NCBI GenBank assembly: GCA_963736115.1
Contig: CAVTNR010000009.1
Coordinates: 64,001-128,000 of the forward strand
Length of the DNA stretch: 64,000 bases
Direction: 5' to 3'
Source: an uncultured bacterium
GTDB taxonomy: Bacteria; Zhuqueibacterota; QNDG01; DTFT01
Each line of letters begins with the position of its first letter. Within the stretch, counting starts at the first letter, position 1. Shown here in pieces: positions 53,044-54,455 of this stretch. Under the pieces are notes generated by a model. It was not told where the DNA came from, made no database searches, and saw nothing but the letters and a program-made list of their open reading frames with translations. Made by a program: the position numbers and the translations under genes.

Positions 53044-53096
53044 CATTCACCGCCCACGGTTTCAATGGTGGGCTGCCGGCTCCTTGTGGTCGCATA

Positions 53097-53139
53097 AAGC
53101 CTCCCGCGGGTTTTGAAAATCCGCGGGAGGCTTCTTTTT
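53097..53139. terminator. Bidirectional terminator between GH31 and AraC (CCTCCCG palindrome family)
   Basis: aagcctcccgcgggttttgaaaatccgcgggaggcttcttttt. Confidence 0.7.
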
Positions 53140-53193: not shown

Positions 53194-54210
53194 TCAGAGC
53201 GGCTTCACGGGCACGCAGATGTCGATGATGTGCTTGTGCTCCGGATGCTCGGACGGGTCATTGTGGCACCACTCATAACACGGTCCGTCCGCGGGCTGAT
53301 AACCGCTCTTCGGCAGCCAGTCGCCGCACACAAAATCCCAGGCCTGCTGGAACTGGTCCTGGGAAATCTCGAAATGCGCCAGAGCATACCGGCCGGCGGG
53401 GATGTTCATCTTTCCGATCTCCCCCCCGACCGCGGTGTCCGGAGGAACGGTGATGCAGACGCTGGTCCTCAGGTTCTCCTCGTCCGTAATTTCGGGATCG
53501 TCGTGGTACACGCTGAGGCACTTCAAGTCCGGCTGAGCCATCAGACCTCTCGGCCCGGCCCATGTCATGAGTTTCGACCACAGCGATTGGAACAGTTTGG
53601 AGTTCCCCTTGTACGGCCCGATGTGCCGCACGTACGCCAACGTCATCACGGGCATGTCGCGAACCTCGACCTTCACATTTTTCGCGTTCAGCATGTTTCG
53701 TCTCCTTTTATTCTGCGGGTGGATGGGATCGTCCGGCCCGCGGGCGCCTGCGCCGGCCGTGTCGAAACCAATATACCCGCTTGAGACGAAACGATCTTTC
53801 CGGTTCTTGCGATCCGTTTTTCCGTTCTTGCTTTTCGCTTGACCGATCTTGCGAAGGCCGCGATATCCCCCAGCCCGCCAGGCGCTCGCGCTCATTCCGA
53901 AATATCCCCGGAACAGCCTCGCGAAAGGCGCGGATCCGGAAAAACCGCAATCCAGGGCTATTTCCGTGACGGACTTTTTCGGATTCGCGACCAGTATAGC
54001 TGCCGCCTTCTCGACCCGGAGCCGCTGGATGAACCGGCTCAGGGTCTCTCCCACCATGGCCCGAAAGATGCGGTGGAAGTGGAAGGGGGAGAAGTTCGCG
54101 ACTTCGGCGAGTTCGTTCAGCCGCAGGGGCCTGTCGAGGTGAATCTGGATGTAATCCATGACGCGGTTGATCCGCGCCCGGTAATCCTCTTCATGGATGG
54201 AAAGGTTCAT
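53194..54210 (-). CDS. AraC family transcriptional regulator with C-terminal GyrI-like effector domain
   Basis: LAEVANFSPFHFHRIF, VTEIALDCGFS HTH; GyrI-like AYVRHIGPY, YHDDPEIT, IPAGRYA, WLPKSGY. Confidence 0.93.
   Translation of the reverse strand: MNLSIHEEDYRARINRVMDYIQIHLDRPLRLNELAEVANFSPFHFHRIFRAMVGETLSRFIQRLRVEKAAAILVANPKKSVTEIALDCGFSGSAPFARLFRGYFGMSASAWRAGGYRGLRKIGQAKSKNGKTDRKNRKDRFVSSGYIGFDTAGAGARGPDDPIHPQNKRRRNMLNAKNVKVEVRDMPVMTLAYVRHIGPYKGNSKLFQSLWSKLMTWAGPRGLMAQPDLKCLSVYHDDPEITDEENLRTSVCITVPPDTAVGGEIGKMNIPAGRYALAHFEISQDQFQQAWDFVCGDWLPKSGYQPADGPCYEWCHNDPSEHPEHKHIIDICVPVKPL
53692..53852 (-). promoter_or_regulatory. Putative intragenic AraC-activated promoter with internal RBS and ATG
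   Basis: GCAAGA x3 at 21-bp spacing (53847, 53826, 53805); TATATT at 53770-53775; AAAAGGAGA at 53701-53709; in-frame ATG at 53694. Confidence 0.55.
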
Positions 54211-54259: not shown

Positions 54260-54330
54260 ATTTATTGAAACCGATGAATCGGTTTCAATACATTCCCAAT
54301 CCTTCGCCCACGACTGAAGTCGTGGGCTGC
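54260..54330. repeat. IS200/IS605-end-like hairpins
   Basis: tattgaaaccgatgaatcggtttcaata and gcccacgactgaagtcgtgggc; related gcccacggtttcaatggtgggc at 53052. Confidence 0.5.
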
Positions 54331-54417
54331 AATCATGACGACCGACCGCAAGCTCAGAAGAGAAGCCTCCCAAGGATTTTCCAAACCAATAGGAGGCTTC
54401 GTGTATTTACATAAACG

Positions 54418-54450
54418 AAAAAAGGATCAATGACTGATTGATCCTTTTTT
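54418..54450 (-). terminator. Terminator downstream of tRNA-Met
   Basis: aaaaaaggatcaatgactgattgatcctttttt. Confidence 0.8.
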
Positions 54451-54455
54451 CTTCG

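Follow-up and report, generated by a model that had tools for sequence, protein, structure and literature searches.

A putative promoter and internal start site in the linker codons of a widespread AraC-GyrI regulator family

We report that the gene of an AraC-type regulator with a GyrI-like sensor domain, on the minus strand of the 64,000-nt stretch analyzed here (the window, whose positions give the coordinates below wherever no other locus or contig is named), carries what appears to be a complete expression module within the codons of its interdomain linker: an array of activator-type boxes, a -10-like hexamer, a Shine-Dalgarno (SD) sequence and an in-frame ATG at the border of the sensor domain. 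A comparison of homologous genes demonstrates purifying selection at the nucleotide level on the boxes, the -10, the SD and the ATG, and these linker nucleotides are almost certainly selected as expression signals. The free GyrI-like domain that the module would specify is very probably made, and probably made from an internal promoter. A first-pass annotation of this DNA had already proposed that the regulator activates a promoter nested in its own coding sequence (CDS); the comparative evidence, namely synonymous conservation and the occurrence of the module in non-coding DNA, supports that proposal.

The elements, listed in the direction of transcription, are as follows (HTH, helix-turn-helix; ORF, open reading frame; PWM, position weight matrix; dG, folding free energy).

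53194-54210, minus strand: full-length CDS of 338 aa, AraC-type HTH, disordered linker and GyrI-like domain (ORF list and Pfam)
53872-54141, minus strand: AraC/XylS DNA-binding domain, aa 24-113 (Pfam)
53835-53855, minus strand: box 1 (distal), 21-nt marbox-like unit TTCGCAAGATCGGTCAAGCGA (PWM 20.2 bits)
53814-53834, minus strand: box 2 (middle), AAAGCAAGAACGGAAAAACGG (PWM 20.4 bits, the top score genome-wide)
53793-53813, minus strand: box 3 (proximal), ATCGCAAGAACCGGAAAGATC, with its AA element on the -35 position (PWM 17.4 bits)
53695-53792, minus strand: predicted RNA hairpin masking the SD in the full-length mRNA (dG -48.5 kcal/mol, z -4.2)
53770-53775, minus strand: putative -10 element TATATT, codons Tyr146-Ile147 (family logo)
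53761-53765, minus strand: inferred internal transcription start, about 53763, 7 nt past the -10 hexamer
53701-53709, minus strand: Shine-Dalgarno AAAAGGAGA, GGAG core at 53705-53702, 7 nt before the ATG (homolog counts)
53692-53694, minus strand: conserved internal start codon, Met173 (in its column in 76/87 homologs)
53194-53694, minus strand: predicted nested CDS for a stand-alone 166-aa GyrI-like protein (Pfam)

The GCAAGA triplet, the TATATT, the ribosome-binding site (RBS) and the in-frame ATG all lie on the minus strand where the first-pass annotation had placed them. Its claim that the ATG at 53694 coincides with the start of the GyrI-like domain is likewise borne out, as the 166-aa product contains that domain in full (PF06445, E 2e-39, residues 9-164).

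Nucleotide constraint in the linker codons

The 338-aa protein is an AraC/XylS family transcription factor, with Pfam matches to HTH_18 (E 8.9e-21) and HTH_AraC (E 2.4e-16) that both pass the curated cut-offs, and it ends in a complete GyrI-like domain (PF06445, aa 181-336, E 1.5e-38, profile positions 3-155 of 155) that also matches the SbmC structure 1jyh (E 1e-8). Its closest solved homolog is STM3175 (PDB 7R3W, E 9e-33 across both domains); after STM3175, the best solved relatives of the HTH domain are SoxS, RamA, Rob and MarA, the match to Rob being limited to that domain (E 5e-10, residues 14-113). An AlphaFold2 (AF2) model built on a 26-sequence alignment (predicted template modeling score, pTM, 0.74) is confident in both domains and gives the GyrI-like part a beta-alpha fold with high predicted local distance difference test (pLDDT) values. 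Linker residues 121-144 and 148-175 have a pLDDT below 50, and the linker, which contains many Lys, Arg and Ser residues with a 7-residue periodicity, is predicted to be disordered.

A protein search returned 4005 matches, the best 120 of which are 309-380 aa long, show 55-90% identity and come from many phyla. Homologous DNA (loci labelled L0xx and L1xx below) was collected by searching 41 related genomes and by scanning one genome per species, the latter yielding at least 585 relatives among 600 candidate stretches, of which 80 were kept. Of the 100 loci, 94 matched at E <= 1e-20, and 87 remained once partial sequences (L007, L011, L013, L014) and duplicates (L021, L029, L065) had been removed. 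These 87 non-redundant homologs are labelled as Fibrobacterota-like, Chloroflexota, Bacteroidota, Ignavibacteriota, Spirochaetota, Myxococcota, Desulfobacterota, Calditrichota, KSB1, Latescibacterota, Gemmatimonadota, Cyanobacteria and other metagenome-assembled genomes (MAGs), and their gene G+C ranges from 0.33 to 0.72. The family logo was built from 85 of them, anchored ungapped on the Tyr146 codon; L056 and L090, which have gaps there, were left out. A distant AraC-GyrI homolog from a related genome (L012, G013:C47) is devoid of every module element, and no long linker was seen in L013 (G032:C130), one of the partial matches left out of the set; the module therefore marks a subfamily and not every AraC-GyrI protein.

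On the minus strand of the linker, GCAAGA recurs three times at exactly 21-bp spacing (53852-53847, 53831-53826 and 53810-53805), an arrangement found once in the window and in 0/100 dinucleotide-preserving shuffles. The first-pass annotation had taken these hexamers for the direct repeats of an AraC-family activator; the spacing and the promoter overlap at -35 stand, and the unit itself has to be redrawn. Judged from the alignment, it is a ~20-bp marbox-like box, GCAA-N5-G-N2-AA, present two or three times per homolog in 21-bp phasing. Numbered from the Tyr146 codon, the box 3 core (-35 to -32) reads G, C, A and A in 82, 84, 83 and 80 of the 85 sequences, the box 2 core (-56 to -53) in 81, 83, 83 and 84, and the box 1 core (-77 to -74) in 72, 63, 70 and 64. 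The G at +9 of the box cores is kept in 67, 68 and 60 of 85, and the AA at +12/+13 of the two proximal boxes in 79-82.

This conservation lies in the nucleotides and not in the residues they encode, which settles the synonymous-site comparison that had been laid down beforehand: in the 87 homologs the repeats, -10, RBS and Met are conserved as nucleotides while the amino acids vary. Linker residues are exchanged (S/R/G, K/N, K/Q) with the nucleotides fixed. Within the 85-sequence set the first box codon is Ser, Arg or Gly, predominantly of the NGC type: Ser is AGC in 132/132 cases (29% elsewhere in the same genes), Gly is GGC in 30/30 (36% elsewhere) and Arg is CGC in 60/73 (28% elsewhere). 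The same holds at the fifth box codon, where Lys is always AAA (110/110, against 60% elsewhere in these genes) and Gln always CAA (84/84, against 32%). Codon identity, computed among sequence pairs that share a residue, has a mean of 0.39 and a maximum of 0.72 over the 260 columns outside the linker; it reaches 0.94-1.0 at linker columns 120, 121, 124, 127, 131, 134 and 138, and 0.84 at column 147, the codon after Tyr146 that holds hexamer position 6. Because the linker has a pLDDT below 50, these frozen nucleotides fall in a segment with no predicted fold.

The hexamer that starts with the Tyr codon has, among the 85 sequences, T in 78 at position 1, A in 83 at position 2, T or C in 56 and 25 at position 3, no preference at position 4, and T in 59 and 79 at positions 5 and 6. 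In sigma-70 -10 elements, T1, A2 and T6 are the positions that matter most. Here T6 is a third codon position, occupied by T in 79/85 sequences (93%) across 12 different amino acids, compared with 23% T at third positions elsewhere.

Start signals at the domain border are conserved as well. In the Met173 column, 76/87 homologs have ATG, 5 more have ATG one codon later and 2 have GTG (L053, L068); 3 have no start (L012, L085, L097) and L056 is unaligned in the linker. A scripted count finds an ATG within 4 codons in 83/87, a figure that includes the unaligned L056 as well as L053, scored for an ATG inside its SD. The SD is GGAGG or AGGAG in 64/87 and GGAG or GAGG in 12 more, with AGGA only in 1, none in 7 and no start in 3; at other codon positions of the same genes these two motif classes occur at 1.7% and 5.7%. 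The seven homologs without an SD comprise two artefacts (L056, L053) and five sequences labelled Bacteroidota. The gap between GGAG and ATG is 7 nt in 67/75, as in the window, and GGAG persists over varying residues (WR, RR, KRR, GRK, GR, QE). The 16S rRNA of the genome ends in ...CACCUCCUUUCU, the usual CCUCC tail, and SD 5-mers are about five-fold enriched before its long ORFs (12.5% vs 2.3%, by a crude first-ATG heuristic). With SD and ATG at the domain border in 76-81 of the 87 homologs, an internal in-frame start that yields the ligand-binding domain alone is predicted for the family.

Promoter geometry and the module in non-coding DNA

The G of box 3 precedes the hexamer by 35 nt in 82/85 sequences, and the box-to-hexamer distance is fixed in at least 94%. 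The hexamer-to-ATG distance varies from 27 to 81 nt, being 42 nt, the mode, in 48/81 and 81 nt in the clade of the window. Fixed spacing from the boxes to the -10 combined with a variable distance from the -10 to the ATG is, as an alignment pattern, promoter-like and not translation-like. If the hexamer is assumed to span -12 to -7, which amounts to assuming the transcription start site (TSS), the G and the AA of the proximal box fall at -47 and at -35/-34, respectively, and boxes 2 and 1 lie two and four helical turns further upstream than box 3. In the class II complex on micF, Rob touches -47G and -45A within the GCAC element of the robbox, and -34, -35, -37 and -38 within the CAAA element, which overlaps -35 (PMC9178005; this and the other papers cited by PMC number are represented here by excerpts of their text). 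A box that overlaps -35 at a fixed distance from the -10, as in a class II promoter, is what the linker alignment contains, and its geometry is that of Rob-micF for the TSS position assumed.

The box itself resembles the marbox of the MarA/SoxS/Rob subfamily, an asymmetric 20-bp site whose GCAC and AAA elements lie 12 bp apart. It agrees with the marbox consensus, as quoted in the excerpted PMC2453137, at positions 1-6, 13, 16, 17 and 19, and has GCA, R13 and A16-A17 at marbox positions, so that the architecture is alike and the sequence not identical. A 20-bp box of this kind fits the MarA/SoxS/Rob-like HTH domain of the 338-aa protein, whose binding to the array is predicted. A PWM scan of the genome (87% complete) covered 6.68 million positions, 12 of which scored 15 bits or more; the three boxes of the regulator gene are the top three scores in the genome, and tandem boxes 21 bp apart occur at this gene only. 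One strong single box (16.9 bits) lies outside the window at C12:104992 (minus strand), some 70 nt before the HTH codons of a further AraC-family gene (C12:104609-104920).

We also scanned metagenome contigs, blind to annotation, for a DNA pattern of two boxes, 21 N, TAnnnT, N10-40, GGAG, N7 and ATG. At least 120 stretches matched and 80 became loci, of which 62 are fused genes of the family, 1 is a GyrI-like ORF with an upstream frame running off the contig end, and 12 are other. In the remaining 5 (L124, L127, L134, L151, L181) the module follows a stop codon and precedes, in non-coding DNA, the gene of a stand-alone GyrI-like protein of 157-159 aa. Since the module precedes separate GyrI-like genes in non-coding DNA, these loci furnish an independent argument that it is an expression signal.

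At four of the five (L181:1075-2945; L124:6590-9760; L134:3218-6085, minus strand; L151:12688-14896, minus strand), the stand-alone gene directly follows a related 302-aa AraC-GyrI regulator. In order, a VOC/bleomycin-resistance/glyoxalase-like gene is followed by the AraC-GyrI regulator, its stop and the boxes with -10 and SD, after which come the gene of the stand-alone GyrI-like protein and one for an aldo/keto reductase that carries an Fe-S domain. The HTH of the 302-aa regulators is 52-54% identical to that of the window protein, and their linker is short, with no boxes and no SD before the border Met. Between the stand-alone protein and the sensor domain of the regulator beside it, identity is about 52%. 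An origin of the fused form by joining an HTH to a downstream stand-alone GyrI gene is unsupported by the GyrI-domain identities, the window domain being 48-50% identical to the regulator-borne domain and 41-43% to the stand-alone paralog of the two-gene loci.

Other pattern matches stand apart. At L119 (1399-1973, minus strand) a non-coding module precedes a gene for a 160-aa TrmO-like protein with a TrmO_N domain, with an ABC-2 permease gene upstream and a convergent gene for a 313-aa AraC-GyrI regulator alongside; from this locus, the module may drive other effector types. In L125 (2784-2878), L150 (2776-2870) and L128 (1103-1205) the pattern falls in AT-rich intergenic DNA upstream of ~700-aa ORFs, L125 and L150 being identical across the region compared; these could have arisen by chance in AT-rich sequence or could represent a further AraC-type promoter.

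At the RNA level, the hairpin at 53792-53695 was matched in stability by 0/200 shuffles. In its outer stem, 10 perfect base pairs join GUUUCGUCUC, located 5' of the -10, to GAGACGAAAC, which covers the 3' part of the SD and the spacer. The 5' arm lies upstream of the predicted internal TSS and would be absent from the short transcript. Across 74 homologs, GGAG is predicted to be unpaired with a mean probability of 0.50 in the short transcript; the value is 0.25 when the native 102 nt upstream are included and 0.41 when the upstream sequence is shuffled (native vs shuffled, Wilcoxon p 7e-6, n=74, from related sequences and mononucleotide shuffles). These folding predictions are suggestive of an SD masked by upstream sequence in the full-length mRNA, and suggestive only.

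The proposed circuit and competing explanations

We consider it reasonably likely that the sensor activates a promoter nested in its own CDS and so makes an excess of its ligand-binding domain in free form. Low-level synthesis of the full-length AraC-HTH/GyrI-like sensor-regulator would come from an upstream promoter with a weak RBS, and the linker-coding DNA would double as a regulatory region with three marbox-like boxes, the proximal one over -35 as in class II promoters. Ligand on the GyrI-like domain would let the HTH engage the boxes of its own linker and recruit RNA polymerase to the internal promoter. The short mRNA, with a 5' untranslated region (UTR) and an exposed strong SD, would be translated efficiently into the free 166-aa domain, which would bind (or inactivate) the same ligand, protecting the cell and damping induction by negative feedback. 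In read-through full-length mRNA the internal SD would tend to be masked by sequence upstream of the internal TSS, so that the short protein is proposed to depend mainly on the internal promoter. We infer the firing of the -10, the protein's own HTH domain as binder, the dependence on ligand and the sequestering role; a sequestering or detoxifying function would follow the analogy of other GyrI-like proteins. In its broadest form, the proposal is of a widespread one-gene 'sense-and-sequester' cassette whose linker codons are at once operator array, activator-dependent promoter, 5' UTR and RBS, kept across >10 phyla and moving horizontally without a partner gene; we give this a slightly better than even chance.

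Several observations weigh against the nested promoter. A generic sigma-70 scan called no promoter at the internal site because its -35 region is poor, which would be the expected look of an activator-dependent promoter. Position 5 of the hexamer is T, not the consensus A, in 59/85 sequences, and the box departs from the marbox consensus by an A in place of C at position 7 and, in most sequences, at position 18, which is mostly G. The PWM behind the genome scan was trained on 170 boxes from the 85 sequences, 2/170 units (1/85 sequences) being the window's own. The annotation-blind pattern demanded TAnnnT, GGAG and ATG, which leaves only the location of its matches informative and not the presence of those elements; moreover, every non-coding example has a gene in the same orientation upstream of the module, so that read-through transcription is possible. 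The box occurs at the main upstream promoters of 8/85 loci only, and autoregulation of the main promoter through it is unsupported. Five Bacteroidota MAGs (L041, L048, L092, L095, L099) keep the ATG but not the SD, with TGGAAA or TGGAAT in place of TGGAGG; most other Bacteroidota members retain GGAGG. Bacteroidota are known to rely weakly on the SD. RNAalifold found no consensus structure in 48 ungapped homologs, and the hairpin of the window is therefore taken as clade-specific; with that result and the anti-SD CCTCC just upstream of the -10 in only 13/81 homologs, a family-wide conserved RNA structure is rejected. Finally, because the homologs are kin and not independent, the Fisher and Wilcoxon p-values overstate significance.

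Some of these points would suit internal translation only, from one mRNA made at the upstream promoter in the manner of TipAL/TipAS, with TAnnnT as no promoter at all and the boxes as other operators, for instance an autorepression roadblock. The SD and ATG are indeed the most strongly supported elements, TipA and AlbA yield two in-frame products per gene (excerpt of PMC6078987), and the poor -35 and the uncalled promoter are what such an explanation expects. It leaves unexplained, however, the conservation of T6 at a third position across 12 amino acids and the near-invariant T1 and A2; the boxes are locked to the hexamer and not to the SD or ATG, in the geometry of a known class II promoter, and by prediction the SD is less accessible in the full-length mRNA than in the short one. 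We regard it as unlikely. Quite unlikely, too, is a real nested promoter whose product acts mainly as an anti-activator, binding the HTH or the full-length protein in trans. Cass2, a stand-alone GyrI-like protein, keeps the surface that in Rob touches the DNA-binding domain (excerpt of PMC3048380), and the circuit looks self-contained, its own boxes being the sole tandem target genome-wide; against this, drug binding is how GyrI-like proteins that stand alone, and ligand-binding domains in isolation, confer protection (excerpts of PMC10414762 and PMC11721078), and in the two-gene loci the module drives a paralog just 52% identical to the regulator's domain. Anti-activator and ligand-sink roles are not mutually exclusive.

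Conservation alone cannot separate action in DNA from action in RNA, and the main promoters of 77/85 loci are without a box, which leaves room for conserved nucleotides that work in the full-length mRNA, by binding a protein or by folding, or that are recognized by a host factor other than the gene's own product. There is, on the other side, no conserved RNA structure, and Rfam gave no family for the linker at E up to 1. The motif is laid out like the marbox, and the gene itself codes for an HTH of precisely the matching subfamily; a module that travels with the gene across many phyla with no conserved neighbor would require a separate trans-factor to be co-inherited. We judge this explanation very unlikely. 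A linker conserved solely as protein, for instance as a basic DNA-contacting arm with promoter- and RBS-like strings as by-products, would account for the Lys/Arg/Ser-rich composition and the 7-residue periodicity; its probability is close to negligible, given amino acids that vary (S/R/G, K/N, K/Q, 12 residues after Tyr) under fixed nucleotides and frozen synonymous codons, a predicted disordered linker and the same DNA module in non-coding DNA.

Genetic setting and relation to known systems

Two further features delimit the gene.

53097-53133, no strand assigned: bidirectional terminator-like hairpin 3' of the gene (terminator scan)
54417-54451, minus strand: terminator-like hairpin after the upstream SMC gene (terminator scan and ORF list)

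As the second of these ends the SMC gene (54451-54417), the regulator gene is a unit of its own; its full-length start is preceded only by a weak SD, AAGGGA. Between the SMC terminator and the regulator start, a 16-nt inverted repeat at 54260-54293 (ATTTATTGAAACCGAT / ATCGGTTTCAATACAT, 94% complementary) offers a candidate operator for the main promoter. On either side the gene is flanked, in direct orientation, by one of a pair of similar palindromic hairpins, CAGCCCAC...GTGGGC, at 54306-54329 and 53052-53075 (minus strand), which are the sole two strict copies genome-wide. The same-genus orthologs L002 and L003 have 3-4 similar palindromes in their flanks, and 90/94 loci have none; the upstream copy has a sub-threshold match to Rfam Acido-Lenti-1 (24.6 bits against a gathering score of 37, E 0.003). 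The palindromes could be repetitive extragenic palindromic (REP)-like elements or cassette boundaries. A blastn search of the linker against the whole genome returned just the linker itself, which rejects a repeated mobile element. A conserved downstream partner gene is also rejected: a Pfam scan of the downstream neighbors of 75 homologs found no common family, the maximum of 3/75 coming from same-genus relatives, and the orientations of downstream neighbors are 37 same and 40 opposite.

If the proposed circuit holds, the gene would offer a clear example from nature of densely packed dual coding, with transcription factor sites, promoter and RBS selected inside an ORF, and readable directly from synonymous-site freezing in hundreds of genomes. 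The free GyrI-like domain would then be a protein missed by annotation in at least 585 species genomes and many metagenome contigs. STM3175 and YgiV, relatives of this regulator, bind gyrase poisons (albicidin and cystobactamids) and protect when overproduced (excerpts of PMC10414762 and PMC11721078), and a built-in inducible overproduction of the binding domain would bear on how environmental bacteria tolerate gyrase-poison-type compounds. The family would also allow the DNA specificity of an AraC-family domain to be read directly from sequence. Each member would supply a matched transcription factor and promoter, a single ORF being sensor, cognate promoter and effector; since regulator and probable operator and promoter share the same 1 kb, they could serve as ready-made orthogonal sensor-promoter pairs.

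Among characterized proteins, Rob has the same order of AraC-HTH and GyrI-like domain as the window protein, and binds as a monomer to an asymmetric 20-bp box with GCAC and CAAA elements, the latter overlapping -35 (excerpts of PMC9178005 and PMC2453137). The window gene is not a Rob orthologue: the match is confined to the HTH, and the nested module is absent from E. coli rob, which lacks boxes (its best site scores 4.6 bits with the PWM) and whose Met125 codon at the domain border is not preceded by an SD. Rob controls a large regulon, whereas the only tandem target in the genome of the window is the regulator gene itself. Closer in both domains is STM3175 of Salmonella, an AraC DNA-binding domain with a GyrI-like ligand-binding domain, which binds albicidin; overexpression of the ligand-binding domain alone raises the albicidin minimum inhibitory concentration, and single-domain and two-domain homologs coexist in nature (excerpt of PMC10414762). 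The linker of STM3175 is short, about 10 aa, and the excerpted main text of that paper describes no internal promoter or start. Overexpressed E. coli YgiV similarly neutralizes cystobactamids (excerpt of PMC11721078), with no box near the promoters of the ygiW-ygiV locus. Stand-alone members of the GyrI-like group bind or hydrolyse toxic small molecules (abstracts of PMC5684135 and PMC9545259); SbmC/GyrI, Cass2, cyclopropanoid hydrolases and CtaZ are encoded by separate genes, unlike the predicted 166-aa product, which is nested in a regulator gene.

A search of openly available full texts, supplements excluded, yielded no account of AraC-GyrI regulators with a nested promoter or an internal start; the nearest matches on internal promoters and effector-binding domains concern CsqR and LysR regulators. 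The closest likeness in logic is to TipAL/TipAS of Streptomyces lividans and to AlbAL/AlbAS, autoregulated MerR-family multidrug sensors in which one gene likewise combines an HTH with a drug-binding domain. The TipAS-type domain is also made alone, in-frame and in large excess, and sequesters the inducer (excerpts of PMC6078987 and PMC3048380). TipA is a MerR-family protein with the TipAS fold and the regulator described here joins AraC to a GyrI-like domain, so that only the logic is analogous and the gene is not a member of the TipA class. As far as the excerpted sources go, the TipA products arise by alternative in-frame translation under the upstream tipA promoter, whereas here a separate putative promoter and probable activator sites lie inside the linker CDS. 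The logic of a self-induced drug sensor with two products is thus known; what would be new is an operator array, a promoter and an RBS written into linker codons and conserved across phyla.

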